From Ginglymostoma cirratum (Eukaryota): a stretch of DNA of 64,000 nucleotides. The notes beneath the pieces are model-generated. The model was given only the letters and a program-made list of their open reading frames with translations, did not search any database and was not told where the DNA came from. A program made the position numbers and the translations under genes. Below are positions 3,315 through 64,000 of the stretch, in pieces (position 1 is the stretch's first letter; every line of letters begins with the position of its first letter). Location: assembly GCA_024137785.1 (NCBI GenBank), contig JAHRHZ010000218.1, positions 31,684,574-31,748,573 of the forward strand, written 5' to 3'.

Positions 3315-3618
3315 TAGGTGGCATGGTGGCTCAGTAGCTGGCACTGCTGCCTCACCACACCAGGTACCCGGGTTTGTTTCCACCCACAGGTGACCATCAC
3401 TCTGGAGTTTGCACATTCTCCCTGTGTCTGCATGGGTTTCCTCCAGGTGTCCCAGTTTCCTCCCACAGTCCAAAGATGTGCAGGTTGGATGCATTGGGCA
3501 TGGAAAGTGTAGGCTTACAGGGATTTGGTAGGGGGTTGGTGGATCTGGGTGGGATGCCCTGGAGAGGATTGGTGTGGTCTCAATGACCTGCTTCTACACT
3601 GTAAGGATTTTATGATTC
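3315..3618 (+). mobile_element. HE1-like V-SINE
   Basis: tRNA head GGTGGCTCAGTAG, V-domain GGAGTTTGCACATTCTCCCTGTGTCTGCATGGGTTTCCTCC...CCCACAGTCCAAAGATGTGCAGG, and a CR1-like tail. Confidence 0.9.
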
Positions 3619-3959: not shown

Positions 3960-4311
3960 TGGGCAGTACAGTGGCTGAGAGGTTAGTATGGTGCCTCAGA
4001 GCGACAGGGACCTGGGTTCAATTCCACCCTTGGTTCACTATCTGTATGTGGAGTTTGCATATTCTCCCCATGTCTGTGTGGGTTTCCTCTAGGTGCTCTG
4101 ATTACCTCCCACAGTGCAAAAATGTGCAGGTTAGGTGGCTAGGCCATGCTAAATTGCCCCTTAGTGTCTAGGGTTGTGCAGGCTAGGTGGACTAACTATG
4201 GTAAATGCATGGTTAAAGGGGTAAGGGGGCAGGTGAGATGTTCTTCGGAGGGTTGGTGCAGACTTGATGGGCTGAATGGCGTCTATCTTCACGGTAGGAA
4301 TTCTATGATTC
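3960..4311 (+). mobile_element. HE1-like V-SINE
   Basis: Same head, V-domain and tail (ends GAATTCTATGATTC). Confidence 0.9.
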
Positions 4312-4349: not shown

Positions 4350-4515
4350 AAGCAACATGCTGTGGAACCTGGAAATCTGAAATAGAAACAAAATGCTGGA
4401 GAAACGCAAGAAGTCTGACAGCATCTGTGGAAAGAGGAACCGAGCTCACTTTCAAATCCAATATGATGCTCTTTCAGAATTGTTCAGCATTTCTCCAGGA
4501 TTTTCTGTTTTTGTT
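4350..4515. mobile_element. PLE family-B tail remnant, partial foldback
   Basis: AAATGCTGGAGAAA...CAGCATCTGTGG matches 50718-50850; CAGCATTTCTCCAG follows downstream as an inverted arm. Confidence 0.6.
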
Positions 4516-4686
4516 TATTATAGGCTGTTCATTCATTCATGGTTGTCCCTCCCATCTTAGCTTCTTTAACAAACTCAAGAGTTTTGTTTCTCTCCCTAGT
4601 CGGCAAATAATTGAAAACCGGAATGGCTCCAGTAACTGATCACTGGATAAGGCACTCAACTAATTAACCAGGTCCTGTTTTACATG

Positions 4687-5329
4687 AGAGATAAAAGGTA
4701 CTGCAGATGCTGGAGAATCCGAGATAACAAGCATGGGGCTGGATGAACACAGCAGGTCAAGCAGCANNNNNNNNNNNNNNNNNNNNNNNNNNNNNNNNNN
4801 NNNNNNNNNNNNNNNNNNNNNNNNNNNNNNNNNNNNNNNNNNNNNNNNNNNNNNNNNNNNNNNNNNNNNNNNNNNNNNNNNNNNNNNNNNNNNNNNNNNN
4901 NNNNNNNNNNNNNNNNNNNNNNNNNNNNNNNNNNNNNNNNNNNNNNNNNNNNNNNNNNNNNNNNNNNNNNNNNNNNNNNNNNNNNNNNNNNNNNNNNNNN
5001 NNNNNNNNNNNNNNNNNNNNNNNNNNNNNNNNNNNNNNNNNNNNNNNNNNNNNNNNNNNNNNNNNNNNNNNNNNNNNNNNNNNNNNNNNNNNNNNNNNNN
5101 NNNNNNNNNNNNNNNNNNNNNNNNNNNNNNNNNNNNNNNNNNNNNNNNNNNNNNNNNNNNNNNNNNCTCTATCCATCCTCTATCCGCCTCCCCCTCTCTC
5201 CCTATTTATTTCAGAACCCTCTTCCCCTCCCCCATTTCTGATGAAGGGTTTAGGCCCGAAACGTCAAGTTTTCCTGCTCCTATGGTGCTGCTTGACCTGC
5301 TGTGTTCATCCAGCCCCATGCTTGTTATC
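4687..5329. mobile_element. PLE family-A foldback insertion spanning an assembly gap; intact hammerhead core at 5238-5265
   Basis: The inner part of the left arm (~4723-4766) is the reverse complement of the right end (~5286-5329). 5167-5329 matches the PLE tail at ~15385-15540. 13-bp TSD CCTGTTTTACATG at 4674-4686 and 5330-5342. Confidence 0.9.
4767..5166. other. Assembly gap (400 N)
   Basis: Run of N. Confidence 1.
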
Positions 5330-6810
5330 CCTGTTTTACATGCCTTGGTCTTCTCTGATTCAGCCAAAGTTCAATCAATTTTGGAAGGACTCCACCTATA
5401 TTATTCCTTCCAACCCCATGGCCTAATCACACATACTGCACTCTCTGAAAATCTTGGTAAAGCATCTACACAAACACCCACTGAGTTTTCACTTACCCAC
5501 AAGTTTTGTTACCTCCAGTTAGAACTCCGAGTCACTGGAGAATTGAGACATTCCTCCAACAAAATGATGCGAGTTCCCTCAATTTATTATTTCTAAGGCA
5601 GTTCATTGTCTGTTCTTTCAGAATGTCCTGCAGCATTTGCCTGACAATACAAATGCAAATATTTAGATCTCGAGGTTTCTGTTTTTGGATTGCACATCAT
5701 TTCATTCTCTGATATTTTCAGGCAACTTGCATCTGTTCCAGGCACAGCAGCACAGTGCCGTACGCTAACCTTCCCTGTTGTGGAAATTTGCCAAGCAGCA
5801 GTAACACACATAAAACCCATCTGGTGATGAGGAGTGTGGCTGCAATGCATCTTTTTTTCAAAAAAACAATTAGCAGTGGAACCAAAATGAATTTCCATCT
5901 GGACTGTTTCATATGAACAAAGTGAAAGCGAAGTGAAGAGGCAACAATGATAGTGACGATAACTTGAAGCCTGTGCTTTTGAAAGAAATACAGGAAAGTG
6001 ACAAGTGTATAAAGTACTTGTAGTGAAATTTGCTGGTTAGATTCTGTCTTCTACCTTTTTCTTTCCACATTTTGAAAGGATTTTCCTCGTCCCAGGCATT
6101 AATGTTTTTATCTTCTGCTAACCACATTGGTCTGTACAGTTTTTAATCTTTCTTAGGTTCACCAGAACAAATTTCGATTGCAGTCCTAAATGGTTTCTAC
6201 TTTGCAAGTGGAGACCACCTCGCTACTGTTTGTTCTGTGTAGCTGTATTAAACTGATGCTCTGATTCCCTTCAATTTTCTTTGAAAATCCAATATTCTTC
6301 TCTTGGTCTCTTTCTATACGCCAATGAGTCATTCAGTTCCAATAATATGATTGTTGAACATAGTTGTTCTTCTGCCAAGGTGTTTGCTAAAGGTGAGGTC
6401 GAAAATAGTCTACCACTTTGTTGCCTCTTCAACAATCCATGCACAAAAGCAACTCTGACTCATCCCTTAGAAGTATGTATTGTTCCTCACTTTTTTTTAT
6501 GCTTGTTCATCTGGGTACTTGAAACCAGCCAATGACTATTAAAGAAAAATGCTGGCAGTGCACACCTATTAGTCATCACCTGTAGTTAGAAAAGGATCTG
6601 TAATATGTTTTGGGCATCTAACTCTTAATCAGCTCTGGCACCCCAAAACAGTCTGACCTCTGCACAGTTCTGTGCTAACCCGTAGTGTATTTACACCATA
6701 TTATGCTTTATCTCAGTTTTTAACCATGAACTCTTTTCATCACACAGATCACTATCCAGCTGTATAAGGGTGAGCACTTGACTGAGTTTGTGCATATATG
6801 GGGCACTAAT

Positions 6811-12155: not shown

Positions 12156-14420
12156 ACAGCTTTTAGCCCAGGGCAGGTAAAACTACACCCATGGATATAA
12201 GATGCTGCCTTTCTGGAGCAAACATATTCAGTGTCACTGGTTCTTCCTCTCTGGAAGCCTTCTGTTTCCCTACTCGATGTCTGCTCCAGTAGAGTGACCA
12301 GCGCAACATGGGGAAATCTTAGCTTTAGTGTTTGTGTGGTCTGGCACCAGACACACTTTGGATCATTTGATACAGGATTCAGAATTATCCTCCTATTTTA
12401 CAAAAGAAGACACAGATTCAGGGTTTTTTTTCTGTCAGTGAAACATGGCATTGGTAAATTGATATCATTTTGTCTGTCTTTTACTGGCACCTGACCATAA
12501 GCTGCTGACAAGTGAATGAAATGTAATTGGGAACACTTAACGTGAATATACCATCAAAAATGCGTTCCGTAAGGCCGTGGTGTGAGAGAACCACAAATTG
12601 GTCAGCAGCTTATTGTCTGTGGGAGGCTATTTGAGGGCAGGTAAGGGAAGGAAACATGCCATTAATAAAGTGTCAAATGGAAACGTGCTAGAAATAATTA
12701 TCAATGTAGGATCAGCATGAATGTAATTACAGGTAATTGCACAGTGTAAAATCGTAGCAGGAAGAGATTAAAAATACAAAATAGTAGTGTGTTTGAAGAG
12801 AATATTTCTCAATTCCTGTTTTACTCCTAATATACAGAAGTGGCAGTTATTGTTTATGGGCATATGGCAAAAAGCTTTACTGGTGCCTGATCAACTTATC
12901 AGTTTCAATAATCTCACAGCAAATATCTGGTGCCAGCAAGTTACCAGCTGGCATCATTACAGCTGTACTGCCAGATCCACCAAACAATATCACTGTGTGT
13001 AGAAAGAATTGAGATATCTTAGTTGAACGTAGCTCGAAGATGTTGGCTGGTTATAAATGATTAGAAATTAGTGAACAGATTACTGACCTATTGTAACTTG
13101 CACAAAGGGTACAGAGGTCTGGGAATGTGTGATGGAAAGATGTGCTTTCTTCACAGCTTTTTTTTTGACAGCTTTGAATTAAATTGGCCTGGCCAAGTAA
13201 ACCAGACTGATACTGTCACTTCAAATTAATTACTGTATCTTTCTTGTTAAATTGAATGTGTAAGTGTGCATTTGAAGTAATAGGAGCTCCTCATAGGCAA
13301 CGCCCACAAAATCCAGCATTTTATTTTCGGGATAAACGACAGACAAACATGAAAGATAACAAATTCTATGGTTCTTAGCTGGAGTGTCTTTATTTTGGAG
13401 AAAGTAACTGCAAAGAATATTATTAGTGTGGATGTGGAAAATTTGGGTCTTTGATTACTGTCACAAAAATTAAAAAGAAACTCTTCAGGTCGACAATTCC
13501 AGATCATAAACTCTGTCTCCTGTTTTCTGAGATAGTAGCTATCAGTGGTAATTGCTGTTGCCATTTACACCTCCTCTATACCTATCATTTTGTTGCTTAT
13601 CTTGTACCATTATCATTCCTTTTGGCCAGGAAACAACATCCCTATTATCATATAAGCTATCTCACACCAGCCCCTTCCGCCCTCTGACATAATCAGGGAA
13701 GGTTATCTCATAGCTGGGAAACCATCATAGGGCCTGCCTTGCAATGAAGTGGGCTTGGCTGCCGTGTTTTCCATAGTGACTAGCTGTATTAATACAACCT
13801 GTGCCTCTCAATCAGTAATCCAGTAACATAACCATTCTGCTACTGCTCATATTAAATGATCACAAAAGCTAGGCACAGAAATTGGGGGTCCCAGGGCTGC
13901 CACTGGCCCTGTCCCCAGACCTATCCTGCTCCCCCCAACTCGAGTACAATGTTCCCCTCCTTTTAACCTGAGCACCATGCCCCCTTAGAGTCCTGTGCCA
14001 TTTATTAGGGCCTGATGTAGGCCCCTACTGTTCTGGGCCAAGAGAGGAGATTCCTGACAGTCTACAGATATTGGCGCCGCCTTGTACTCCCACGAGGAGC
14101 TCGAACAGTTCATCCACTTCACCAACACCTTCCACCCCAACCTGAAGTTCACCTGGACCATCTCCAACACTTCCTTTCCTGGACCTCTCTGTCTCCATCT
14201 CGGGTAACCACCTAGAAACCGATGTCCATTTCAAGCCCACTGACTCCCACAGCTACCTGGAATACACCTCCTCCCACCCACCTTCCTGTAAAAATGCCAT
14301 CCCCTATTCCCAATTCCTTCGCCTCCGCCGCATCTGCTCCCAGGATGAGGCATTCCACTCCCGCACATCTCAGATGTCCTCGTTCTTCAAGGACCACAAC
14401 ATCCCCCCCCCCCCCCCGCA

Positions 14421-15173
14421 GTGGTTGAGAATGCCCTCGACCGTGTCTCCCGCACTTCCCACAACTCATCCCACACACCCCGTCCCCGCAATAATAACCA
14501 AAAAAAAATCCCCCTCGTCCTCACGTACCACCCCACCAACCTCCGGATCCAACGCATCATCCTCCGACACTTCCACCATCTGCAATCCGACCCCACCACC
14601 AAAGACATTTTTCCCTCCCCATCCTTGTCTGCTTTCCGGAGGGACCACTCCCTCCACGACTCCCTTGTCCACTCCACACTCCCCTCCAGCCCCACCACAC
14701 CCAGCACTCTTCCCTGCAACTGCAGGAAGTGCTACACATGCCCCCACACCTCCTCCCTCACCCCAATCCCAGGCCCCAAGAAGACTTTCCACATCAAGCA
14801 GATGTTCACCTGCACATCTGCCAATGTGGTATACTGCATCCGCTGTACCCGTTGTGGCTTCCTCTACATCGGGGAAACCAAGCGGAGGCTTGGGGACCGC
14901 TTTGCAGAACACTTGTGCTCAGTTCGCAACAAACAACTGCACCTCCCAGTCGCGAACCATTTCAACTCCCCCTCCCATTCCTCAGACGACATTTCCATCC
15001 TGGGCCTCCTGCAATGCCACAGTGATGCCACCCGATGGCTGCAGGAACAGCAAATCATATTCAGCCTGGGAACCCTGCAGCCCAATGGTATCAATGTGGA
15101 TTTCACAAGCTTCAAAATCTCCCCTCCCCCAACCGCATCCCAAAACCAGCCCAGCTCGTCCCCGCCTCCCTAA
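14421..15173 (+). pseudogene. PLE ORF segment encoding the GIY-YIG endonuclease domain
   Basis: 250-aa open frame with the VVY(x10)YIG motif, conserved R and H residues and the C-terminal GIN. Confidence 0.9.
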
Positions 15174-15442
15174 CCTGTTCTTCCTCTCACCTATCCCCTC
15201 CTCCCACCTCACGCCGCACCCCCATCTCCTATCTACCAACCTCATCCTGCCCCCTTGACCTGTCCATCCTCCCTGGACTGACCTATCTCCTCCCTACCCT
15301 CCACCTACACTCACCTTTACTGGCTCCATCCCCGCCTCTTCGACTTGTCTGCCTCCTCTCCACCTATCCTCTCCTCCATCCATCTTCTATCCGCCTCCCC
15401 CTCCTCTCCCTATTTATTTTAGAACCCTCTTCCCCTCCCTCA

Positions 15443-15476
15443 TTTCTGATGAAGGGTCTAGGCCCGAAACGTCAAG
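15443..15476 (+). ncRNA. Minimal type-I hammerhead ribozyme in the PLE family-A tail
   Basis: UUU-CUGAUGA-A-GGGU(CUAG)GCCC-GAAA-CG-UC^AAG; palindromic ACGU stem III; predicted cut after C15473. Confidence 0.8.
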
Positions 15477-15857
15477 CTTTCCTGCTCCTATGATGCTGCT
15501 TGGCCTGCTGTGTTCATCCAGCCCCACACCTTGTTATCTTGGATTCTCCAGCATCTGCAGTACCTTTTATCTGTGATCATTATTAAATTTCTCCCAAAAT
15601 GCGCTCAAGAGCATTGGTGTTGAGCAAATGTTACAGGGCTTGTTAAAGTCACAGTGCATATATGGGAATAAGAGGTGAGAAATTGCCAGTGAATCCATCA
15701 AGCTGCCTCACCACACGATAGTTGGAGCCTAGAGTCATAGAGTTACGCAGCACAGATTGATGATTAAGTACTTCCTCAGTCACTCCCCCACCCCCACCAG
15801 CCTTTACCAAGCCTAGTCATATGATCTCGCAGAAGAAAAATTTAAAAAATAATGAGT

Positions 15858-16190
15858 GGTATAGATAAGGTGAATGGCAGGTGGCTTTTCCCTAGGCTGG
15901 GGTATTTCAAGTCTAGGGGGCGTATTTTTAAGGTGAGATGAGAACGATTTAAAAAAGACACAAGGGGCAGTTTTTTCCAGAAAAAGTGGTTCATGTGTGG
16001 AATGAACTTCCAGAGGAAGTAGTGGATGTGGGTACAGTTACAAAAGACATTTAGATAAACTTATGAATAAGAAATGTTTTGAGGGGTATGGGCCAAGTGC
16101 AGGCAGGTAGGACTAGTTTAGTTTGGGATTATGGTTGGCATGGACTGGTTGGATCAAAGGGTCTGTGTCCGTGCTGTGTGAGTATGACTC
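15858..16190 (+). mobile_element. CR1 LINE 3' end
   Basis: TTTAAGGTGAGA..TGTGGAATGAACTTCCAGAGGAAGT..GGGCCAAGTGCAGG; closely similar to 53205-53635. Confidence 0.85.
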
Positions 16191-23208: not shown

Positions 23209-24067
23209 TTGCAGCAGGATCTTGATCAGCTGGGGAAGTGGGCTGAGAAATGGCAAATGGAGTTTAATATAGATAAGTGTGAGGTGTTGCATTTTGGAAC
23301 GTCAAATCAACGTAGGAGTTTCATGGTGAATGGTAGGGCCTGAAGGAGTGTAGTGGAACAGAGGGACCTTGGAGTTCAGGTATATAGTTCTCTGAAAGTG
23401 GAGTCACAGGTAGACAGGGCAGTGAAGAAGGTTTTTGGCACATTGGCCTTCATCAGTCAGGGCATTGAGTACAGAAGTTGGGAAGGTATGTTTCAGTTAA
23501 ACAGGATTTTGGTGAGGCCATGCTTAGAGTATTGTGTTCAGCTTTTGGTCACTATGCTATAGGAACGATGTTATTAAACTGGAAAGAGTGCAGAAGAAAT
23601 TTACAAGGATGTTGTCAGGATTCGACGGATTGAGCTATAGGGAGAGGTTGGACAAGCTAGGACATTTTTCTTTAGAGCATAGGAAACTGAGGGGGGATCT
23701 TACAGGAGTGTACAAAATCATGAGAGGCATGGATAGGGTGAATGCACTCAGTCTTTTTCCCAGGGTTGGGGAATCGAGGACTAAAGGGCATCAGTTTAAG
23801 GTAAGAGGCGAAAGAATACATGGGAACCTGAGGGGCAACTTTTTTGACAGAGGGTGGTTCACATATGGAATAAGCTGCCAGCAGAAGTGGTTGAGTTGGG
23901 TACATTAACAACATTTAAAAGGCATTTATATGAATACATGGATAAGAAAGGTTTAGAAGGATATGGGCCAAGTGCAGGGAAATGGGGTTAGTGTGAATGG
24001 GTATTTTGGTCGGTACAGACCTGTTTGGGCCGAACAGCCTGTCTCTGTGCTGTTGGACTCTATGACT
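23209..24067 (+). mobile_element. CR1 LINE 3' fragment
   Basis: ORFs EQRDLGVQV..RPCLEYCVQ and LERVQKKFTRML..LRGDL..YKIMRG; ends ACTCTATGACT. Confidence 0.95.
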
Positions 24068-25699: not shown

Positions 25700-26300
25700 A
25701 TAGAAAGGAAAGCACCTTTTGATAACCTCGGGATGTACCAGTGTGCTTTGCAGCTAATAATACACTTTAGAAGTGTAGTTATCATTGTAACATTGAAAAA
25801 ATGATGGCCAATTTGCACAGTGCAAGATTCCGCAAACCACAGTGTAACAATGGCCCAATTATCTTTTATAATGAAACAAAAACAGAAATTTCTGGACAAG
25901 CTCAGCGGGTCTGGCAGAATCTGTGGAGAGAAATCAGAATTAATGTTTCTGGTCCAGTGACTCTTCCTCAACAGTTCCAAGGAAGGGTCCTGAAATGTTA
26001 ACTCTGATTTCTTTCCACAGTGTTGTCAGCCCTGCTGAGCATTTCCAGCAATGTCTGTGTTTGTTTGATTTCCAGCATCTGCACATCTTCTGGTTTTTAT
26101 CTTTTATAATGATGATGTTTGAAGGATAAACATTTGCCAAGATGTAAAGTAGAATCATCTGCTCTCAAAATAGTTCTAAGGAATCTTTTGCATTTACAAG
26201 AGTGGACTTCATTTAATATCTTATCCAAAAGGCAGCCCCTTTGACAGTGTAGCAACCCTTCAGTATGGCACTGGAAAGTCAGCTTAGATTTTATGCTAAA
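25700..26300 (-). mobile_element. Deu-domain SINE hosting a foldback insertion
   Basis: GGCCAATTTGCACAGTGCAAGATTCCGCAAAC is the reverse Deu-domain; the SINE continues after 26112. Confidence 0.65.
25875..26096. mobile_element. PLE family-B tail foldback with 16-bp TSD
   Basis: Inverted arms centred near 25972; TTATCTTTTATAATGA at 25859-25874 and 26097-26112; hammerhead cores decayed. Confidence 0.85.
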
Positions 26301-28712: not shown

Positions 28713-29457
28713 CTAAATAATTTGTATTCACAGTCGCATTATGCGGTAAAGTTCGAAGTGATCCACAAAAGGAACTATTAGAATAGAGGACCTAAAGCTG
28801 AGTCAATAAGGTGGTTTTTGAGGAGCATCTTAAGAAGAAAGAAATGTAGATTGTTTTACAGAGAGAATTCCAGTGTTCTAAGCTTTGGCAACATGATTCA
28901 CTTGGTCCTAATGATGTTTCCAAATTCCAACAGATTGGCACAATGGCCATGACTGAATATCTCAGCCATGTCCCAGTTCATGATATGTTTCTGTCATTCA
29001 GTTTCCCATGCTGGACAAGTCTTAATCAGGATTCATGACTGAAATACTCTACTCTTCCATTTTCTATGCCAATGTTTCTGTAACACATGCTAATGCAACA
29101 AACAGAATTAGACTTAAGGGCTGGGATGGATTGTGGAGAAATCAACCAATGAAATTTTGGGTGCTGTCCCAGGTCCTGAAGTCATGCTGTTCAGATTATA
29201 ATGACCTGGAGTTTCCAAGGAGTGTCAATCATTGGCACCTTTCTCGGACCTTCCCCAACTGGACACTGTACATTTCTTGCAGGGCGTTTTAACCCTGATA
29301 TAACCAGAGATGTGGAACACAGCGCCTCTTGGAGAGCTCCATTGCAGAGGAGTAGAGCTGGGCAAACACAGGGCACGTAAGCTTTGCACAGTGCTACATT
29401 CAAGCTGCAGTATGAAGTCTTGTGAATGAATGAGTGGATGGGGTAGGAAAGTGGGTA

Positions 29458-29694
29458 CATAAACAAAGTTTCTGGGAAAGCTCAGCAGGTCTGTCAACAT
29501 CTGTGAAGGGAAAATCAGAGTTAACGTTTCGAGTCTGGTGACCCTTCCTCAGAACTGTTCTGAGGAAGGATCACCGGACCCCAAACGTTAACTCTGTTTT
29601 TTCCTTCACAGATGCTGACAGACCTGCTGAGCTTTTCCAGAAACTTTGTTTTTGTTCCTGATTTATAGCATCTGCAGTTCTTTTGGTGTTTAGT
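29458..29694. mobile_element. PLE family-B foldback with two divergent hammerhead cores and a 14-bp TSD
   Basis: Long inverted arms around CAGAACTGTTCTG (centre ~29556); TAGGAAAGTGGGTA at 29444-29457 and 29695-29708. Confidence 0.9.
29519..29556 (-). ncRNA. Minimal hammerhead ribozyme, family B (intact core)
   Basis: Minus strand reads AGUU-CUGAGGA-A-GGGUC(ACCA)GACUC-GAAA-CG-UU^AACU. Confidence 0.75.
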
Positions 29695-32111
29695 TAGGAA
29701 AGTGGGTAGGTTGGCAGGTGGGGCCAGATAGTGGTCAGGTTCTGGTTGGTGGAGAGGGGTCAGACTGTGGGAAGTTAGGGAGGTGACCAAGTGTCCAGAG
29801 AGGTAATCAGTGAATAGGGATGTAGCTGGGTTCAAGGATCTGATTGGAGCAGGGGAGGGGTGCGTTAACTGGATGCCAGTATTGTAGTTAGCCAGGTGAT
29901 GGGGTTTTTTTCTGACTAACATTTCCTGACAACAATTCAGGTAATTGTACTGGCTTTGGTCTCCCAGGCAGTGACTTTTGCACAAAAGTCCCAGAGATCT
30001 GGAGAATTGCTTGTTGGATGTTGAAAATTCCCTGGGAACTGCCATGTACTTCAGCTTGTTTGGGCTTTCACATGTCATGATGCAAATCTCTATTTGTACA
30101 TCAGGCCTCCATTGGTCCAGGGGCCTGAAGGTTTGGACCAATATGTTTAGACTGAAGCTATTTTCTAATCAATCTGCTCAGAATTATTACTACGCACCTC
30201 AATGACAGATGGGACTTGAACCTGGGCTTCCAGGTCAGAGACTGGGACACTACCACTGCAACACTAAAACCTTGTGTATGGATTGGATGCAGTGAGGGAG
30301 AATGCAGCCCTATGGTCTTCTAAGACTATGGTGGCTTTACCTTGTAAACCAAGTCAGAAATTACTTTCATCGAGGCTGGTAGAATTTAGAATGGCCCACC
30401 TCCTGAACGATTACAAACAGAGCTATAATTACATGCACAGCAGAATCATGTATTAAACTTGGAAAGATTGCAATAACAACAAAAGAAATGGCCTCAAGGT
30501 CATACTGAAGCTTGGCAATTGTACAGTTTTTAGAAATTACAGAAGATTTGTGTTAAATGGTTAAATAATAACACACTTGCTGTACGTTCGTTGATTTATT
30601 TGATAACCAGAAACTATGTTTACACCAATCATGAACAATGCAGGAAGTGAAACTTGAATTGTAATGATAAAACCAAGTTGTTACCAAATGCTTCAGCCAG
30701 CTTTAGGAAAAGAGAGATTACAGTAGGTTAGTTAAAATGAATGTCCTTTTATTAGGCAGTTGACTTTCACAATTACAGAAAATCCTATGGCAGATTGGCA
30801 GGATCATGCCATGGTCAACAGAAGTGGATACTATGAGGGTTATATCTGAACTAACTGCAGATGGACAGCCTTACATAGGATTCTGAAGCTCATTGCAAAG
30901 GTGATTGTATTTCTGTTTCTGGGGAGTGGGCAGTTCTGAGATCAGGTTCCTGCCAGTCAATTACTGCTTTCAGCCATAAGGGCATTGTAGCTCTTGGGAA
31001 TGGATTGGCATTTTTGCACCACTACTCACCCTAGGGAGTTAATGCCCTGACAATGCTATAGGGCACTGCCTTGTACCAAAATGGATCAGTCCCAAAAGGG
31101 GAGACGACTTTTCAGGTTTGTGAAAATTGAGGGCAATCACACGAATGCCACCAATGCAAGCTTTCAGTCGAAGATTGTTTTAACAGTCTGGTTGCAGCCT
31201 TATTGGCAAACTGCCATGTCATTGTTGAGTGTTTTGCAGGCTGCTAATAGACAGATAAATCTTCAAGGAGCTGTAGGGTGTTACAGTTGTGAATAAAATT
31301 AGATTGAATCCAGGCTCAGTCTCCTCGCTGCACCGCTAGGGGTTGATAGAGTAATGATGTCAGTTCACCGAGTGACAAGAGGGATTCGACTGGCTCTACC
31401 TTGAAATGAATGGCAGCTTGAACATCTGGCATGTATTCCAGCTCTGTGTGCAATGAGAGTCTCTACAGCAATACTCCTTAAAGAACAAATATTATCTGCT
31501 GAAGTTTAAGTATTGCTCTGAGAACCAGAAAGGGTGTCATTCAGACAAGGCTGGCGTCAGTAATTAAGCTGTCTCAGCTGGATGAACTGTTGCACACGTT
31601 ACACATGGATTGGGAATGAGTGAGCTTGGTCCTTTGTCAAGATGCATGAGAAAATGGAATCAGACATGTGATACCTTCGATACCAATTAAGGCGAGGTGA
31701 AACCCTGTACCATATCAGATTGCAATCTCATCTAATATGACTTCCTTCAACTTATGGTTTTAGTTTTTTTTAAGCAAGGCTGCGTCATCTCTGCAGCCTC
31801 CTCTTAATCCGAACTGAATAGCTCCTTTTTACAGAAATCTCAGGTGTAGACTCACTTCAGGTGAAATTCCTGACATTAAGGTTTTTTGGATGAGAGACAG
31901 ACGTAACTGAAGCCCTGTCTGTCTGTCCAGGATGAGGCCCACTTGGAGTGTTATGCCAAGTGTCCTGACCAATATTTACCTTCTTCGTCAATATCATAAA
32001 ACAACAGATTAATTAGTCATTACAAAGTGCCTGTTTGGGGGAGCTTGCTGTGCACAAATTAGCTGCCACACTTCCTATGTTAAAACGGTGACTACATTTT
32101 AAAAGGTACTT

Positions 32112-32637
32112 AGATAACACAGTATGGAGCTGGAGGAATACAGCAGGCCAGGCAGCATNNNNNNNNNNNNNNNNNNNNNNNNNNNNNNNNNNNNNNNNNN
32201 NNNNNNNNNNNNNNNNNNNNNNNNNNNNNNNNNNNNNNNNNNNNNNNNNNNNNNNNNNNNNNNNNNNNNNNNNNNNNNNNNNNNNNNNNNNNNNNNNNNN
32301 NNNNNNNNNNNNNNNNNNNNNNNNNNNNNNNNNNNNNNNNNNNNNNNNNNNNNNNNNNNNNNNNNNNNNNNNNNNNNNNNNNNNNNNNNNNNNNNNNNNN
32401 NNNNNNNNNNNNNNNNNNNNNNNNNNNNNNNNNNNNNNNNNNNNNNNNNNNNNNNNNNNNNNNNNNNNNNNNNNNNNNNNNNNNNNNNNNNNNNNNNNNN
32501 NNNNNNNNNNNNNNNNNNNNNNNNNNNNNNNNNNNNNNNNNNNNNNNNNNNNNNNNNNATGCTGCCTGGCCTGCTGTATTCCTCCAGCTCCATACTGTGT
32601 TATCTCTGACTCCAGCATCGGCAGTTCTTGCTATCTC
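32112..32637. mobile_element. PLE family-A-type foldback insertion spanning an assembly gap, 15-bp TSD
   Basis: Perfect 47-bp inverted repeat at 32112-32158 and 32559-32605; TTTTAAAAGGTACTT at 32097-32111 and 32638-32652. Confidence 0.9.
32159..32558. other. Assembly gap (400 N)
   Basis: Run of N. Confidence 1.
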
Positions 32638-33024
32638 TTTTAAAAGGTACTTCACAGGTTGTAAAGAAATTCAAGACACTGGATGTTTGTGAAAAGCACG
32701 ACATAACTTCAAATCTTTCTTCCTTTGTGCCATTAATGAAAAAGTAAACAGATCACTGGCAAAATAGGAGATCCAGATTTGCAACTGAATCTTTTGTTCT
32801 TAAAATCAAAGGAGGAAATGTCACCCACCAATTCATACTGGTCAACTTCTCTGCTGTACATAAGTCCAGTGTAGTGCTCAGCTATTTCCTGATTCTCCCT
32901 TGTTGTATCCAGGAAAAACTAAAGATTCCAGTGCTGCAGCAGTAGTATCCCTGTCTCTGAGCCAGGAGGCCAAGGTTCAGATCCCGTGAGCCATTGCAAA
33001 GGACAATGGCAGCTAATGCATGTG

Positions 33025-34361: not shown

Positions 34362-35109
34362 ATAGAACATAGAACATAGAACATTACAGCACAGTACAGG
34401 CCCTTCGGCCCTTGATGTTGCACTGACCTGTGAAACCAATCTGAAGCCCGTCTAACCTACACTATTCCATTTTCATCCATATGTTTATCCAACGACCATT
34501 TAAATGCTCTTAAAGTTGGCGAGTCTACAACTGCTGCAGGCAAGGCATTCCATGCCCTTACTACTCTCTGAGTAAAGAATCTACCTCTGACATCTGTCCT
34601 ATATCTATCACCCCTCAATTTAAAGCTATGTACCCTCGTGCTAGCCGTCACCATCCGAGGAATAAGGCTCTCACAGTCCACCCTATCTAATCCTCTGATC
34701 ATCTTGTATGTCTCTATTAAGTCACCTCTTAACCTTCTTCTCTCTAACGAAAACAGCCTCAAGTCCCTCGGCCTTTCCTCATAAGACCTTCCCTCCATAC
34801 CAGGCAACATCCTGGTAAATCTCCTCTGCACCCTTTCCAATGCTTCCACATCCTTCCTATAATGCGGTGACCAGAACTGTACGCAATACTCCAACTGCGG
34901 CCGCACCAGAGTTTTGTACAGCTGCAACATGACCTCACGGCTCCGAAACGCAATCCCTCTACCAATAAAACCTAACACACCGTACGCCTTCTTAACAACC
35001 CTATCGACCTGGGTGGCAACTTTCAGGGATCTATGCACATGGACACAGAGATCTCTCTGCTTGTCCACACTACCAAGAATCTTACCATTAGTCCAGTACT
35101 CTGTATTCC
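34362..35109 (-). mobile_element. Young CR1 (HER1-like) LINE 3' fragment with (GTTCTAT)n tail
   Basis: 223-aa open frame LYKTLVRPQLEYCVQFWSPHYRKDVEALERVQRRFTRM...; ATAGAAC repeats at 34362-34382. Confidence 0.96.
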
Positions 35110-35518
35110 AGATCTCTGTATCACACAATTCATATTATGAATTCCAAATCCAGTGATGATATCATTACACCACTGTCTCTGATTTGTTTTACCAATGAAT
35201 TATGTTAATTTTAAACTTCCCCGCTTCAGCGGTGAAACTTGAACTTGTGACTCTGGATCATACTCCGATTCTCTGGATTGCTAGTTCAGCAACATAACCA
35301 CAACGCTATTTGTACCCCTATTGGCTGCTAAGGTTAGATGAAGAGTGAAGGGAAGCTTGTATGGAAGAAAAATCCTGATAGAGACTTGGTGGGCCAAATG
35401 GCCTGTTCCGAATTGTAGACTCAATGTGATTCCATGTAAATGTGACATTGCCTAATTCTGCATCTGCCACTTGAGGGAGGTGACGGTCTAGTAGTATTAT
35501 CACTGCATGGTTAATTTC

Positions 35519-35840
35519 GGACAGCACAGTGGCTCAATGGTTAGCACTGCTGCCTCACAGCACCAGGAACTCAGGTTCAATTCCACCCTCGGGTAACTGT
35601 CTGTGTGGAGATTGCATTCTCCCTGTGTCTGCATGGGTTTCCTCCAGGTGCTCCAGTTTGCTCCCACAGTCCAAAAATGTGCAAGCTAGGTGGATTGCCC
35701 ATACTAAATTACCTATAGTGTTCAGGGGTGTGTAGATTAGGTGAGTTATAGGGGAATGGGTCTGGGTGGGATGCTCTGAGGGTCAGTGTGGATTTGTTGG
35801 GCTGAAGGGCTTGTTTCCACACTGTAGGGATTCTATGATT
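35519..35840 (+). mobile_element. HE1-like V-SINE
   Basis: GTGGCTCAATGGTTAGCACTGCTGCCTCACAGC head, V-domain and GGGATTCTATGATT tail. Confidence 0.92.
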
Positions 35841-37473: not shown

Positions 37474-37780
37474 AATCATAGAATCCCTACAGTGTGGAAG
37501 CTATTTGGCCTCAACCCCCTCTGAACAGCATTCCATCCAGACCCACGCTATTACTCTGCATTTCCCATGGCCAATTCACATAGCCTGCACATCCCTAAAC
37601 ACTACAGACAATTTAGCATGGCCAAGCCACCTAACCTGCACATTTTTGGACTGTGGAAGGAAACCCACGCAGATATGGGGAGAATGTGCAAACTCTACAC
37701 AATCACCCAAGGATAGAATCAAACCCAGGTACTCGGTGCTATGAGGCAGCAATGCTAACCACTGAGCCATTGTACCACCC
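37474..37780 (-). mobile_element. HE1-like V-SINE
   Basis: Reverse copy running from AATCATAGAATCCCTACAGTGTGG to GCTAACCACTGAGCCA. Confidence 0.9.
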
Positions 37781-51697: not shown

Positions 51698-51747
51698 GAG
51701 ATAACAAGCATGGGGCTGGATGAACACAGCAGGTCAAGCAGCATCAT
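51698..51747 (-). mobile_element. 50-bp PLE family-A tail micro-insertion, 14-bp TSD
   Basis: First 46 bp identical to 4721-4766; CAAACTTGACCATC at 51684-51697 and 51748-51761. Confidence 0.9.
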
Positions 51748-51874
51748 CAAACTTGACCATCTGTTCCTTACAATCAGGAGCAAATATTTTTCAATCCAAT
51801 ATGAAGAGAAATGATAGCGAGATCTAGGATTTGTAAGAGACCTTAGTCTATATGGCTGCCAGTGGAAAAAGAAC

Positions 51875-52907
51875 AAAAAATACAAAAGAGAAGTACAGCA
51901 CAGGAATAGGCCCTTTGGCCCTCCAAGCCTGTGCCAATCATTGTGCCCTAACTAATCTAAATAACAAACCTTCTGCCATTATTCAGTCCGTATCCCACTA
52001 TTCCCTCCCTATTCATGTAACCTTTCGGGTGCCTCTTAAATGTTGCCAATGTGCCTGCTTCCACTACCTCTTCTGGCAGTGCATTCCAGGCTCCTACTAC
52101 TCCCTGTGTGAAAAACTTCCTTCGCACATTTCCCTTTAAACTTTCCTCCTCTCACCTTGAACCTGTGCCCCCTTGTAATTGAAACTTCAGTACTGGGAAG
52201 AAGCCTCTGATTATTCACCCTATCTGTGCCTGTCATAATTTTGTAGACCTCTATCAAGTCTCCTCTCAACCACTGTCTTTTCTGTGAAAACAATCCAAGT
52301 CTGTCTAACCTTTCCTTATAGCCAATGCCCTTGAGACCAGGCAACATCCTGGTGAATCTTCTTTGTACTCTTTCCAAAGCTTCCAGGTCCTTTTGGTAGT
52401 CTGGCGACTAAAACTGCACACAATACTCCAGATGCAGCCAAACAAGGGTTTTATATAGCTGCAACATGGTTTGCCAACTCTTGTACTCCATACCCTGGCT
52501 GATGAAGGTGAACATGCCTTCTTAAACACCTTGGCCGCCTGTGTTGCCACTTTTAGGAAAGTGTGGACCTGCACCCCCAGATCCATCTGAATGTTATTGT
52601 TCCTTAGGGTTCTGCCATTTACAGTATAACTCACACCTAAATTTGATCCTCCAAAATGTATTACCTGGCATTTGGATTAAGCTCCATCTGCCATTTCTGC
52701 ACCTAGTCTATCCTGTTGTATCCTTTCACAATCGTTGGCACTATCAGCAACTCCATCAATCTTCATGTCACCTGCAAACTTGCTAATCAGACCACTCACA
52801 TTTTCCTCCAAGTCATCTATATATACTACAAACAATAGAGGACTTAAGCCTGATCTCTGTGGAATGCCACTAGTTACTGGTCTCCATTCTGAAAAACACT
52901 CTTCCAC
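51875..52907 (-). mobile_element. CR1 LINE fragment (RT to 3' end)
   Basis: ORFs SGIPQRSGLSPLLFVVYIDDL..KFAGD and ERVQRRFTRMLPGL..LRGDLIEVYKIM. Confidence 0.95.
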
Positions 52908-53204: not shown

Positions 53205-53635
53205 ATTAGAAGAGACTGGATAGGCTGAGACTTTTTTCACTAGAGCATAGGAGACTGAGGGGTGACCAAATATAAGTTTATAAAATCAAGAGGACTACAG
53301 ATAAGGTGAATAGCAGATGTCTTTTCCCTGGGTGGGGGATTTCAAGACTAGGGGATGCATTTTTAAGGTGAGAGGAGAAAGCTTTAGAAAAGAGATGAGG
53401 GGCAACTTTTTTTACCCAGAGGGTGGTTCATGTATGGAATGAACTTTCAGAGGAAATGGTGGATCAGGGTACAGTTATAACTTTTAAAAGACATTTGGAT
53501 AAGTACATGAATGAGAAATGTTTGGAGGGATATGGGCCAAGCACAGGCAGATGGGGACTAGTTTAAATTTGGGATTAAGGACAGCATGGACTGGTTGGAC
53601 TGAAGGGTCTGTTTCTGTGCTGTATGACTGTATGC
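53205..53635 (+). mobile_element. CR1 3' end
   Basis: AGACTGAGGGGTGACC..TATAAAATC..TGGAATGAACTT..GTGCTGTATGACTGTATG. Confidence 0.88.
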
Positions 53636-54431: not shown

Positions 54432-55040
54432 ATGTCCTGTTAACCATTCATTGTGAGAAGTTCCGAGCATAGAAGCAGGGATATGTTGTTGCAGTTATAC
54501 AAGGCCTTGGTGTGGCCACACCTAGAATACCTTGTGCAGTTTTGGTCTCCTTTTCTGAGGAAGGATGCTCTTGCTCTTGAGGGAGTGCAGCAAAGGTTTA
54601 CCAGGCTGATTCCAGGGATGGCGGGACTGACGTATGAGGAGAGATTGACTAGGTTAGGATTGTTTTTGTTGGAGTTAAGACGAATGAGGGGAAATCTCAT
54701 AGAGACTTATAAAATTCTAACAGGACTGGACAGGGTAGATACAGGGAGGATGTTCCTGATAGTGGGTGTGTCCAGAGTCAGGGGTTACAGTCTGAGGATC
54801 CGGGATGGACCACTTAGGACAGAGATGAGGAGACATTTCTTCACCCAAACAGAGGTGAACCTGTGGAATTCATTGCCACAGGAAGTAGTTGATGCGAAAT
54901 TGAATGTATTGAAGAGGCAGCTAGATATCGCACTTGGGGTGAATGGAATCAAAGGTTATGGAGACAAAGCGGGTTTAGGCTACTGAGTTGGATGATCAGC
55001 CATGGTCATGATGAATGGCGGAGCAGGCTCCTATCTTCTA
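54432..55040 (+). mobile_element. CR1 LINE 3' fragment
   Basis: 177-aa ORF LLQLYKALVWPHLEYLVQFWSPFLRKD...NLWNSLPQ. Confidence 0.95.
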
Positions 55041-55464: not shown

Positions 55465-56282
55465 CCCCGTGTGCGCGCACACACTCTTTCACTGTCTCTC
55501 ACTCACTCAATCACTCCCTCTCTGTCTTCCCCCCCACCACACACATGCCCGCACTCTCTCCCTCTCACACGTGCACACTTTGTCTCCCCCCCCAATCTCT
55601 CTCCTCTCTCTCTCTCTCTCCACTCTCACACTCACATTCTCTCTGTCTCTTTCTCACCCCTCACACACAAACATTTGAATCTATGGGGTGAACTTGTATT
55701 TGCAGAAACATTCTAGTTTGTTCAAAAAGCATGCAATTTGTAGACAGTCAGTCAATGTGGCATTTTGTAAATTCCTATTTTAGAACCCGTTTGTGTTTTG
55801 GTTTGGAGTCAGACAGTTTCTATTTCTAAACAAGGCCTCACACCTAACATGAGATAACAAGGTGTAGAGCTGGATGAACACAGCAGGCCAAGCAGCATCA
55901 GAGGAGCAGGAAAGCTGACATTTCGGGTCTGGATCCTTCTTCAGAAAAACCTAACGTATTGTCTGACCTAAAATATCACCTTTTCTTTATACTGATAAAA
56001 CTTTTCATTCTCTCAGGACAGCGACTTGTAAGGAATTCAGGGATTTACATATACATATTAATCAATTAAAACCTTCTAATCGATTGAAGATTTAACAGTA
56101 CCTCAGGTTTGTTTAATACATCCTGATCAGTGGTGTGACCCTTTGATTTTTTACTTATAAATTGTATGTCTGATACTATGTGTTGCACTAATGCCTGATG
56201 GAGGAGTGAAGCTCTGAAAGCTTGTGTTTTCAAATAAACCTGTTGGACTATAACTTGGTGTTGTGAGATTTCCGATCTTGTT
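55465..56282 (+). mobile_element. Putative PLE family-C 3' region (CT/CA-rich tract plus tail with a decayed hammerhead at 56195-56223)
   Basis: Low-complexity 55470-55670, then CTGATGGAGGAGTGAAGCTCTGAAAGCTT followed by AAATAAACCTGTTGGACTATAA. The PLE assignment is inferred from the hammerhead architecture; no ORF is seen. Confidence 0.55.
55851..55948 (-). mobile_element. Solo PLE family-A tail nested in the family-C region
   Basis: Minus strand TTCTGAAGAAGGATCCAGACCCGAAATGTC..TTGTTATCTC; ACCTAAC at 55842-55848 and 55949-55955. Confidence 0.88.
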
Positions 56283-57052: not shown

Positions 57053-59270
57053 AGTATCCATTGTACTTGCACATTTCCAAACTGATGAGGGAATTCTATT
57101 CCCTTCCTGCTTACTGATCACTGAGTCTTATGTTTTGAATGTCAAAATCAATTTGTCCATTGGTGAGATGTTGAAGAATTTGCCAGTGGTTTAATATTGG
57201 TAACACTTTTCTCAAAACGAAACTGGTAGCTTGGTATGAATTTTTGAACTCTGAATTTGAAACAAAGATAACCTTGATTGAAAGGATTGAAATTTCTTGA
57301 AAAGAAATTAGCTTTCAACAGTCCTGAAGCCTAAAGGTGTGTGCCTCATCTCTCAATAGCATACATTTCAGTAAAAAGTGCTGGAGAAACATGGTAAATC
57401 TGCAACATCTGTAGAGAGAATAACAGAGTTAATGTTTCAAGCCCATGATGACTCTTGAGTTTCTGAACATTTTTGTGTTTGTTGGTTGTGTTTGTATGTG
57501 CATGCATTTTCTGTATCTATCTTTTGATTTTAAATGATCCTGTAACAGTAGCAAAACCTTTCTTAGCTGCCATCTTAGTTTCAGTCAAAAGTATGTTTGC
57601 CGTGGATCCCTGAGCATCTTTGCTGCTTTGTGTCACGGTAGAATCTTTTGAGGTTTAGATAATTTATCTGGCCTTTCGAAGTTGATTGACCTGGGTCTTG
57701 ATGACCAGTCCTTGAAGGTTGTGAATGTCTTTTTTTTTGAGCAGTCCCAGATTTTACTGCCAATGTTGAGCAAGGAAAGAATTGAATCATTTTATCTTTC
57801 TTGATCACTGTTCAGAAGTGGCAAGTTTGACATGGACAGAATGGTGGTTGTAATCTCCATTGTAGGGAACAGCAAGGAAAAAGCTCTATCAATAGCGTCT
57901 AGTTACTCTGGTTTTCTCTTGCTAAGATTGGGGGAGGAGAGAAATCAATCTGTTAATACATAGGCTCATGACTGCCTTAAGCAAGTACAGATACAATTGA
58001 TTGTGTGTCAGTGAGTAAGGATTGTGCTTAGCTAAGGACTGGAGAGGGTGGTGGAGATAGGAGTATGTGAAGATGTCTGAGCACTAATAAATCGTTGATG
58101 AACAAAGGGAACAATGGGACAACAAAAGTGAGCGAGTGAATGGAGGTTGACAGGTGTCAATTGTATCAGTTTGGGGACATAGTTTTCCCTCCTTTCTTAT
58201 TTGAAAGGAGGGGATCGTATTTGAAGCTTCAGTCAGGAAGGAGATTGGATGGCTGAGAATCTTATGACCAGACATGAGATCTTTCCGTGCTAATGAATGT
58301 TGCGGTAATGTTGGTGAAGTAATGTTTAGGCACCACTGAAGTTGAATTTAAAATATACAGCGAAGCTCCTCTCCCAGATTGATGCAAATGATCTGTCAGA
58401 TATCACGATGAGTTAATTAAATGTTGTTTTCATACCTGTTCAGTTCAGTGGTCCTGTGGGAGGTTTATGTCATAAGAATTTGACGTTGTTCAAACACACG
58501 TCACCAAGTCCTAAACAGCACAAAAGAAATCCTGGATGAATATTTGCTTCATGAGGTACTGTATTGAGTTTGTGCAGAAATATGACTTGTTATAGTGTTG
58601 TTTCAGCTACACTTAGTGACTGTCATTCTAAGGCCTACAACTGAGCACCAGTCCCGAGAAACATCCGTCAAGAAAATTCCTTCTATTAACTGCATGTCTG
58701 AGTCTTTAATCTGTTCTGTAGATCATTGGTTTTCAGTGTCCACTAACCATTACTAGTTTTAAGTTGACTCAGGAAACATATATTTAATCAGACTGATCAG
58801 AAAGCTATTTTCTAATCAATCTATTCAGTGATTTTATCAGGAAAAAATCAGTGATTTTATTACACAGCTCTGGAGCTGGTGTGATTTGAACCTAGGCCTA
58901 CTGGTTTAGAGGTAGGGACATGATGCAGACTACCTCTGCTATGAAGTTTTGGTTTACCTCCTGTCTTGTCAATACTACAATTGTTTCCTTTTCATTCAGG
59001 TTAGCTATCATAATCGTGGCTTTCTCAATGCCTCACAACACGGTGATTAAACAGTGATTCAAGCCAAAAGCAGCTTTTAAGTTTGAAATGTCTGCCATTT
59101 GAAATGCAGATTGACTCATTGAATGGACTGGAAAGTATAAGTTTGATTGAAACACAGTCAAGTGATTTGGAAGATGTCATAAAATTGCACATTGCAACAG
59201 CAGTCATTTGGCCCATTCCATCAGGCTAGGTCTCTCAAAAAAGTATCCAACCAAACCCACCACACAGTTT

Positions 59271-59383
59271 AAATAAAACAATGAACTGCAGATGCTGGAG
59301 ATCTGAAACAAACAAAAATAGAAGTTACTGGAGAAACTCAGCAGGTCTGGCAGCATTTGGGAAGAAAAGAGTCCAGTGACCCT
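59271..59383 (-). mobile_element. PLE family-B tail fragment
   Basis: AACTGCAGATGCTGGAGATCTGAAACAAA..CTCAGCAGGTCTGGCAGCAT..GAGTCCAGTGACCC. Another fragment lies at ~57370-57460. Confidence 0.8.
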
Positions 59384-63549: not shown

Positions 63550-64000
63550 ATTCCCAGAATTGTTACCGTGCACAAGGAGGCTATTCAGCCCATTGTATAT
63601 GCACTGGCTGTCTGAACATTTTTGATTTAGTAGTAATCTCCAGCCTTTTTCCCAGCAACCCTGCAATTGTTTCTATTTAAATAATCATCCAGCACCCTCA
63701 ACTGAACCTGCCTCCACTACACCTCCAGGCAGTGCATTACAGACCCTATATGCTCATTATATGAAAAGGTTTTTTTTTCACCTTGCATTTGCTTCTTTTG
63801 CAAAACATTTAAAACTGTTCCCTCTTGTTCTCTATCCATTTACAAGCAGGAACAATTTCTCCCTATAGAGGTAACAAGGTGTAGAGCTGGATGAACACAG
63901 CAGGCCAAGCAGCATCAGAGGAGCAGAGTTTTGGGCCTAGACCCTTCTTCAGAAAACAATTTCTCCCTATCCACTTTGTGCAGACCACTCGTGATTTTGA
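63550..64000 (-). mobile_element. CR1 3' fragment (runs off the window) hosting a PLE micro-insertion
   Basis: GGAGGCTATTCAGCCCA..CCTCCACTACACCTCCAGGCAGTGCATTACAGA. Confidence 0.75.
63867..63954 (-). mobile_element. 88-bp PLE family-A tail micro-insertion, 16-bp TSD
   Basis: Minus strand TTCTGAAGAAGGGTCTAGGCCCAAAAC..; AACAATTTCTCCCTAT at 63851-63866 and 63955-63970. Confidence 0.9.

Follow-up and report, generated by a model that had tools for sequence, protein, structure and literature searches.

Insertions of endonuclease-bearing (EN+) Penelope-like elements (PLEs) show a published signature, in which an inverted, truncated copy lies beside a pseudo-long terminal repeat (pseudo-LTR, pLTR), a tail of 30-40 nt is present at one end, and the target site duplication (TSD) is of variable length (PMC8557442, PMC3846280, PMC8969392). 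Minimal type I hammerhead ribozymes have been described from metazoan PLEs (Cervera and de la Pena 2014, PMC4209133), and minimal hammerheads of this type are thought to need dimerisation (PMC4209133; PMC6765202). Pairs of hammerheads on opposite strands, 100-700 bp apart, have already been reported from Schistosoma (PMC4209133). The PLE protein of an anole was found in vitro to cut and extend both strands and to insert uncleaved RNA, ribozyme cleavage being unneeded; its reverse transcription began internally, at two sites that delimit the tail (PMC11167929). Here, we compare these systems with a palindromic insertion at 29444-29708 in one 64-kb window of Ginglymostoma cirratum (GCA_024137785.1, JAHRHZ010000218.1), the window being the whole stretch of 64,000 nucleotides that was analysed, to which all coordinates and all copy counts refer.

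The insertion has a known architecture, that of the inverted-pLTR stub already published for PLEs. Sequence comparisons make its PLE origin almost certain, and it is probably a by-product formed at insertion, in which the ribozyme does not act. Read directly from the sequence are an arm that is the 3' end of a PLE, a TSD, a one-sided tail and a junction just 5' of both ribozyme cores. Two related families of repeat ends were found in the window by local searches, family A, which contains 29444-29708, and family B. As an object, the insertion is ordinary; its greater value is as data on the ends of PLE insertions. The lead of interest, drawn from a small sample, is that 5' ends appear to gather at the ribozyme's 5' edge and that two-armed copies tend to have a single tail.

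Layout and origin of the palindrome at 29444-29708

The 14-mer TAGGAAAGTGGGTA occurs exactly twice in the window, with a match that extends neither way, and the two copies enclose an insert of 237 bp. Of 5000 random window pairs of like size and spacing, 4994 had no word of more than 10 nt in common, and the remaining six pairs (14 or 16 nt) were the TSDs of this insertion and of a second palindrome at 25859-26112 themselves. Both the TSD and the insert length given in an earlier reading of the sequence by a model, hereafter the original prediction, are thereby confirmed. The features of the insertion are the following.

29444-29457, unstranded: left TSD copy, 14 bp, exact match to 29695-29708
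29458-29555, sense on the minus strand: inverted tail-less PLE pLTR end of family A, 89/98 against the right arm and 76% against the pLTR of the GIY-YIG-bearing copy at 50757-50853
29519-29556, minus strand: putative minimal type I hammerhead motif with an intact core, from the pattern match and the features in PMC4209133
29553-29559, unstranded: head-to-head junction AAC-T-GTT with one unpaired base, 29556, from arm pairing
29557-29654, plus strand: body of the direct pLTR end, from arm comparison
29557-29592, plus strand: hammerhead motif with a broken core (C in place of G12 at 29582) and a mismatch in helix II at 29570, from the core sequence
29655-29694, plus strand: PLE tail as defined in PMC8557442, 40 nt, right arm only, homologous to the ends at 50718-50757, 59280-59310 and 26067-26096
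29695-29708, unstranded: right TSD copy, exact match to the left copy

The arms pair at 89 of 98 positions and differ at the other nine. The palindrome that had been predicted is thus present, and its true centre is the single unpaired base rather than the 7 nt proposed; those 7 nt are the distance between the two C3 residues, and within them AAC pairs with GTT. Of the two back-to-back palindromic halves, the inverted arms were recovered and the symmetry was not: the right arm is longer than the left by 40 nt, which makes the element asymmetric. Because of this extension, terminal inverted repeats are not present at the outermost bases of either palindrome in a 30-nt end comparison, where 9/30 positions match the reverse complement of the other end in 29444-29708 and 5/30 in the second copy. 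There is no open reading frame (ORF) inside the element.

The link to a PLE comes from a 5'-truncated copy on the minus strand at 50706-51447, which has an endonuclease (EN) remnant, a 3' untranslated region (UTR), a degenerate hammerhead and a tailed pLTR. The element copy itself (50718-51435, 718 bp) ends in the same arm as 29444-29708, with the tail, and contains a C-terminal remnant of a GIY-YIG endonuclease at 51435-51226 (tblastn, 49% over 70 aa to P0001, E 2e-14), identical at 26/53 residues to the family-B EN. When homologues of this 53-aa remnant were sought, one match among three candidates was obtained, with no informative name. Because this copy joins the arm to the EN remnant within a single 12-bp TSD, the arm of 29444-29708 is identified as the pLTR end of a PLE. 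The two arms of 29444-29708 are 76-78% identical to that of the GIY-YIG-bearing copy, which is, by sequence comparison, a relative and not the parent. The family-A profile also matches family-B ends at E values down to 1e-8, and the pLTR of a family-B copy with coding sequence (B3, below) at E 3e-8. No reverse transcriptase (RT) is left on any family-A copy in the window. The claim of the original prediction that the insertion is of PLE origin and no DNA transposon is borne out by an arm that is the 3' end of a GIY-YIG copy, by long TSDs of variable length and by termini that are not inverted.

The hammerhead core on the minus strand is intact (C3 = 29552), with helix I AGUU/AACU, CUGAGGA, an extra A, a helix II of 5 bp and GAAA-C-GUU. 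The motif has every feature of the consensus, namely the extra base after A9, the G10.1-C11.1 pair, a short helix I and a palindromic ACGU in place of helix III, which is possible only between two molecules. On the plus strand, the core fails through the replacement of G12 by C at 29582 (GAAA to CAAA, as had been read from the sequence before) and an A.C mismatch in helix II at 29570. The pattern CTGANGA-N8-24-GAAACRT had four matches in the window against 0.13 expected, a number that none of 100 shuffles reached; the matches are the minus-strand core of 29444-29708 and three PLE family-B ends. A hammerhead search with Rfam models, as suggested in the original prediction, returned no hammerhead family among three hits in the whole window (E up to 1) or 11 hits in 29400-29750 (351 nt, E up to 10), in keeping with the absence of helix III from the motif. 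The two scans matched only hairpin-shaped microRNA-precursor and cis-element models, all below gathering scores. The hammerhead call is made from the motif and a published descriptor, with no model score.

The fold energy is -156 kcal/mol on each strand (z -20 and -23), and none of 200 shuffles was as stable. An RNA across the palindrome is predicted to form a hairpin of ~98 bp, in agreement with the long double-stranded RNA proposed earlier. In the fold of the whole element, the probability of helix II is ~1e-15, with a penalty of 21.4 kcal/mol, as compared to a probability of ~0.82 when the 45-nt motif is taken by itself. Two motifs co-folded without constraints did not adopt the dimeric hammerhead fold. 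The cores lie on opposite strands, and any one transcript therefore has just one core in sense, so that the two cores cannot form an intramolecular dimer; a two-ribozyme dimer of this kind was rejected. The predicted scissile bond of the minus-strand motif, between 29523 and 29522, is 33 nt off centre and at no element end, and ribozyme cleavage was likewise rejected as the origin of the element ends. A working two-ribozyme element, as first envisaged, does not agree with cores on opposite strands, of which one is mutated, with the low helix II probability and with ends away from the scissile bond. Burial in the hairpin, at a cost of 21 kcal/mol, and the opposite orientation of the cores lead us to regard the by-product as probably catalytically dead and not a retrozyme. 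Catalysis is not expected at this locus, where the folding predictions make the ribozyme a probable passenger, buried in the hairpin if it is transcribed.

PLE ends and other features of the window

In total, 15 insertions were counted in the window, of which seven belong to family A and eight to family B. They are numbered A1-A7 and B1-B8 where they need to be told apart, A1 being 29444-29708.

25859-26112, unstranded: A2, second palindrome; 16-bp TSD TTATCTTTTATAATGA, 222-bp insert, tail of ~30 nt on the right
4360-4519, unstranded: A3, older palindrome; left-hand tail, centre AATTGTT (7 nt), right arm with a deletion, no TSD found
57360-57490, unstranded: A4, decayed two-armed copy; centre deleted, no recognisable tail on either arm, no TSD found
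50706-51447, minus strand: A5, the 5'-truncated PLE with the EN remnant; 12-bp TSD
59280-59390, minus strand: A6, single tailed arm; internal deletion, ends within helix II, no TSD found
40833-40939: A7, decayed family-A-like arm; profile E 1e-5
82-292: B1, family-B palindrome; tail on the left, 4 nt (AAAT, 180-183) between the cores, deletion in the left arm
14070-15573, plus strand: B3, 3' half of a related PLE; RT C-terminus, CX4CxxC linker, GIY-YIG, 3' UTR, intact hammerhead (C3 = 15446), tailed pLTR
4674-5342 and 32097-32652: two-armed family-B insertions, each with a 400-N gap; TSDs of 13 and 15 bp
51684-51761 (insert 51698-51747): tail-less PLE stub of 50 bp; perfect 14-bp TSD, stops before the hammerhead
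55842-55955, 63851-63970 (insert 63867-63954) and 41577-41673: solo tail-less family-B arms; TSD of 7 bp, of 16 bp and none, respectively

The second palindrome, A2, is 76-79% identical to 29444-29708, and its own arms are 74% alike. The original prediction had described it as a copy of the same geometry with a different TSD, which we confirm with the correction that both of its cores are broken; the last 3 nt of TTATCTTTTATAATGA may be element sequence. A TSD was identified at nine of the 14 insertions tested (A7 at 40833-40939 was left out), with lengths of 14, 16, 12, 12, 13, 15, 14, 7 and 16 bp and a median of 14. The 12-bp TSD of B1 extends to ~16 bp with one indel. Within family A the lengths are 14, 16 and 12 bp, and thus not fixed. 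Neither scattered inversion centres nor fixed TSDs of 2-9 bp, both of which had been named beforehand as signs against the earlier reading, were seen in this window.

The outer ends fall at two positions. Counted from C3, tail-less ends lie at +95 in family A and at +94 in family B, and tailed ends at +135 and ~+127, respectively, with a tail of 40 nt in 29444-29708, ~30 nt in A2 and ~33 nt in family B. Exactly one tail is present in six of the seven two-armed insertions (A1, A2, A3, B1, B2 and B4). Tail-less solo copies with their own TSD occur at 51698-51747 and 63867-63954, which identifies the inner end as a real integration end.

At the other side of the arm, seven of the 12 placeable 5' ends sit 1-7 nt upstream of C3, comprising the junctions of A1, A2, A3 and B1 and the solos B5, B7 and B8, of which B5 is less certain as it has no TSD. 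The solo arms at 55842-55955, 63851-63970 and 41577-41673 end 2-4 nt upstream of the hammerhead core. Of the other ends, those of A5, B2 and B3 are far upstream, and those of A6 and B6 are downstream of the core. The 5' ends of A4, A7 and B4 (3/15) could not be placed, and at none of the 12 placeable insertions does the end coincide with the predicted scissile bond.

Upstream of the core of A5, at 50853-50880 on the minus strand, a pyrimidine-rich stretch with TAG at -5 to -3 resembles a 3' splice site. The palindrome at 29444-29708 has CAG at the matching position, and family B does not. A 3' splice site was considered as the 5' boundary and left unsupported, the AG at -4/-3 being found in family A only and being explained by helix I as well.

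The two arms of 29444-29708 are 91% alike, as compared to 65-82% to other family-A arms. They share 14 non-majority columns in the arm body, four of which are in no other arm (19 shared columns were listed, and five in the centre or flank were dropped). Such columns number seven for the arms of B4, six for those of B2, all six also found in solo B6, and two for those of B1. The arms of an insertion thus have variants in common with each other, and not with the corresponding arm of other copies. This likeness, together with the occurrence of the same arms as solos and on long copies, fits palindromes that form anew at each insertion, and makes the self-propagating palindrome family of the original prediction less likely. 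The centre is AACTGTT in 29444-29708 and AACAGTT-like in A2 and A3 (with the tail set on the right), a difference that would be expected if a mismatch at the centre were repaired at random.

Deletions within one arm or spanning the centre were observed in four of the five older ungapped or small palindromes besides 29444-29708 (4360-4519, 57360-57490, 82-292 and 25975-25995), some of them at short direct repeats (CTGAG), and would fit inverted-repeat instability. In the A7 region (40833-40960), TCAG-GT-CTGAG comes after the arm and may be an old head-to-head junction whose cores are 2 nt apart.

Family B is represented by coding sequence in B3, where a GIY-YIG domain was identified with Pfam (E 2e-5) in frame 14349-15170. 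This copy has frameshifts near 14180 and 14410, and no TSD was found. The best two of 11 database matches to the frame are from Rhincodon typus (89%) and Stegostoma tigrinum (85%), which by themselves would make a carpet shark the most likely host of the window, and the RT C-terminal sequence matches proteins that have RVT_1 and GIY-YIG. A CX2-5CxxC linker before GIY-YIG marks the Neptune clade (PMC8557442); the CX4CxxC linker is present in family B, and the linker region is missing from the family-A copies. Both of the 400-N gaps in the window fall within two-armed family-B insertions and are probably assembly gaps caused by hairpins. The stub at 51684-51761 is identical over 47 nt to 4720-4766, which suggests a young family-B subfamily. 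A database protein from a ray, P0003, annotated as "divergent protein kinase domain 1C isoform X2", can be aligned to PLE RT-EN sequence along most of the protein and is probably a gene model that absorbed a PLE.

The surroundings of these insertions were also surveyed. No Pfam hits to a host gene were obtained in 139 of the 182 non-repetitive stop-to-stop frames of at least 60 aa (the longest 150, minus 11 inside the family-B PLE), a scan that short exons would escape. There are no tRNA genes in the window, and one scan of bacterial and archaeal genomes with the arm motif gave no matches. Repeated decayed frames are located at 23528-23987, 34457-35134, 42281-42720, 43922-44110, 52036-52676, 53211-53556, 54444-54986 and 15833-16150; they look like 3' ends of CR1/L2-type long interspersed nuclear elements, and Pfam gave no hit for the two tested. 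A dispersed repeat of ~300 bp (3345-3612, 3989-4308, 35515-35835, 37559-37664 and 38725-39058) appears to resemble the shark HE1 / V-SINE family. Outside the PLE families, 47770-47876 and 48441-48547 form an inverted pair of 107 nt, 75% complementary and 564 nt apart.

Probable formation at insertion and alternative origins

We propose a double-priming route, drawn by analogy from the in vitro work on the anole protein, which has about an even chance of being the origin of 29444-29708. The element is best explained as a minimal insertion product of a GIY-YIG PLE, in which a tail-less pLTR end in inverted orientation meets a tailed one head-to-head. The endonuclease would make staggered nicks 14 nt apart, and the two 3'-OH ends would serve as primers for reverse transcription of PLE RNA, one of them from the inner start (+95 relative to C3), the other from the outer start (+135). 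Both complementary DNAs (cDNAs) would cross the uncleaved ribozyme and halt a few bases 5' of its core, either at the 5' end of the RNA or at a strong RT stop. In Drosophila Penelope, a promoter and an intron were described in this region (PMC2377424), and the intron ends at the 5' end of helix I (PMC4209133). The cDNA 3' ends would then join via the AAC-N-GTT quasi-palindrome, followed by fill-in, and the palindromic product would form anew at each insertion and probably be a dead end. The clustered 5' ends and the one-tail pattern fit such a scheme, with both target nicks primed on a single RNA from its two internal sites.

Several points weigh against this account. The sample is one 64-kb window with 15 insertions, three of them not mappable, and the count of clustered 5' ends was made post hoc and is biased to copies long enough for detection; p-values for the clustering (1e-5 or smaller) suppose that truncation is uniform, and we place no weight on them. 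The decayed copy A4 appears tail-less on both arms, and one tail in six of seven copies gives p ~0.06 under equal and independent choice (0.016 for 6/6 alone). No TSD was found at five of the 14 insertions, and the 7-bp TSD is within chance, as 493 of 5000 random pairs give 7. The GIY-YIG-bearing copy A5 differs upstream of the core, where it has no quasi-palindrome, and is just 76-78% identical in the arm. The difference in the centre could be one point mutation, and arms as alike as these would also result from fold-back synthesis, gene conversion or a palindromic master. With the left arm folded alone, the probability of helix II is only ~2e-4, so that the model yields no ribozyme fold even without the hairpin. 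Finally, the protein studied in vitro is that of a Poseidon-clade element, whereas family B has a Neptune-type linker, a region that the family-A copies lack.

The strongest alternative, which we consider rather unlikely, retains the PLE origin and derives the inverted arm from fold-back self-priming: a cDNA or an antisense template would fold at the central palindrome and copy itself, and the tail would mark the resolution of the intermediate by the endonuclease. Fold-back was proposed for rotifer PLEs from palindromes at head-to-head junctions (PMC3846280), the tail has been ascribed to EN-mediated resolution (PMC8557442), and the identity between the arms and the AAC-N-GTT centre are accounted for equally well. 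However, the tail-less solos with their own TSD share the inner end, which must thus arise without fold-back, and the B1 junction at 180-183, with AAAT between the cores, has no foldable palindrome. The two internal start sites of reverse transcription that bound the tail in vitro (PMC11167929) also speak for the double-priming route.

A non-autonomous palindromic master, akin to a short interspersed nuclear element or a retrozyme, which would be transcribed whole and then retrotransposed by PLE proteins acting in trans, is the strongest form of the original prediction and is distinctly less likely. Three family-A copies are nearly alike in size and in the centre (7, 7 and ~5 nt between the cores), a separate TSD accompanies every mapped copy, pLTRs are able to move sequence in trans (PMC3846280), and tandem retrozymes have been argued to derive from pLTRs (bioRxiv 10.64898/2026.07.22.740005). 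Against a master, the same arms are found not only in two-armed copies, whose inner structure varies, but also as solos and on long copies, and the solo ends stop where the junctions do. The two-armed copies of family B moreover have their own sets of variants on both arms, the B2 set being found in solo B6 as well. A 98-bp hairpin would bury both the ribozyme and the region where reverse transcription starts, and no promoter or tandem array was seen.

A miniature inverted-repeat transposable element (MITE) or foldback DNA transposon, moved by a cut-and-paste transposase, would also be short, non-coding, palindromic and flanked by a TSD, but the ends are not inverted repeats, the TSD measures 14 bp in one of the two copies and 16 bp in the other, with a range of 7-16 bp among the relatives, and the arm terminates a retroelement of GIY-YIG type. 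This identity is ruled out by the asymmetry of the ends and the varying TSD, which leave it a negligible probability; as weak evidence in the same direction, there is no transposase among the 139 ORFs scanned with Pfam. An assembly artefact (fold-back read or misjoin) or a chance palindrome is more improbable still, since the arms differ at 9/98 positions, an exact TSD bounds the insertion and older, diverged copies have the same layout, despite the two 400-N gaps within two-armed family-B copies, which suggest that hairpins trouble this assembly.

More tentatively than for the single locus, the double-priming account could be extended to shark PLEs in general, which might shed many short strong-stop cDNAs that run from two internal RT starts to a fixed 5' edge of the hammerhead, one ribonucleoprotein priming both nicks on the same RNA, one per start site. 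If true, a single strong-stop and double-priming rule would yield solo stubs, inverted pLTRs, the one-sided tail and palindromes. The ribozyme region of PLEs would then set the end of the cDNA, as transcript 5' end or RT stop, rather than cut, and shark genomes would hold thousands of natural read-outs of PLE integration. Neither this rule nor the clustering at the 5' edge together with one tail was found stated in the accessible portions of the literature searched, a search that did not extend to Repbase and most subscription papers (Arkhipova 2006, Lunse 2017).

The 15 PLE-end insertions in 64 kb suggest a very large sample genome-wide, and the end positions of such copies can separate double priming from fold-back self-priming. 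For annotation, PLE stubs can pass for MITEs or microRNA hairpins, and they break assemblies. If transcribed, each palindrome is predicted to be a local source of long double-stranded RNA.

Comparison with described systems

The MITEs of cut-and-paste DNA transposons are small hairpin elements with a TSD, and have terminal inverted repeats and a fixed TSD length. In contrast, 29444-29708 has no terminal inverted repeats, belongs to copies in which the TSD length is not fixed, and is derived from a retroelement.

With the metazoan non-LTR retrozymes (PMC7229834; Li et al. 2026, bioRxiv 10.64898/2026.07.22.740005), the insertion shares a short, non-coding sequence, a type I hammerhead, a long TSD and a relationship to PLEs. 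Retrozymes are head-to-tail tandems with ribozymes on the same strand and circular RNA (PMC7229834, bioRxiv 10.64898/2026.07.22.740005), whereas the arms of 29444-29708 are head-to-head with cores on opposite strands, one of them broken, and a classification as a non-LTR retrozyme was therefore rejected. The words "shark" and "cartilaginous" occur zero times in the main text of bioRxiv 10.64898/2026.07.22.740005.

The intact motif resembles the minimal type I hammerheads of metazoan PLEs in the CUGANGA core, the extra base between 9 and 10.1, the G10.1-C11.1 pair, the short helix I, the palindromic 15.2-16.2 and the missing loop III (Cervera and de la Pena 2014, PMC4209133). It differs from the Schistosoma hammerheads in that the opposite-strand cores are 7 nt apart and helix II is 5 bp, as compared to 7-8 bp (PMC4209133). 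Sharks are not mentioned in the accessible portions of this hammerhead survey (PMC4209133).

In Anolis carolinensis, the Poseidon element PAc (Frangieh et al. 2024, PMC11167929) also ends ~100-150 nt downstream of its hammerhead, with two ends that bound the tail. It is of the Poseidon clade (PMC11167929), whereas the family-B ORF has a CX2-5CxxC linker of the Neptune type (PMC8557442). ORF-less palindromes or a 5' boundary at the ribozyme are not described in the portions of the PAc study that were accessible (PMC11167929).

The closest systems are the EN+ PLE insertions (Craig et al. 2021, PMC8557442; Arkhipova et al. 2013, PMC3846280). Published examples keep an ORF or captured DNA between the pLTRs, with pLTRs of ~180-220 bp and TSDs of 8-10 bp (PMC8557442, PMC3846280), whereas 29444-29708 has two arms only, each ending just 5' of the ribozyme core, and a TSD of 14 bp. 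In common with them is an inverted 5'-truncated copy beside a direct pLTR, together with a head-to-head junction with a short palindrome, a one-sided tail of 30-40 nt, a variable TSD and an association with assembly gaps (PMC8557442, PMC3846280).

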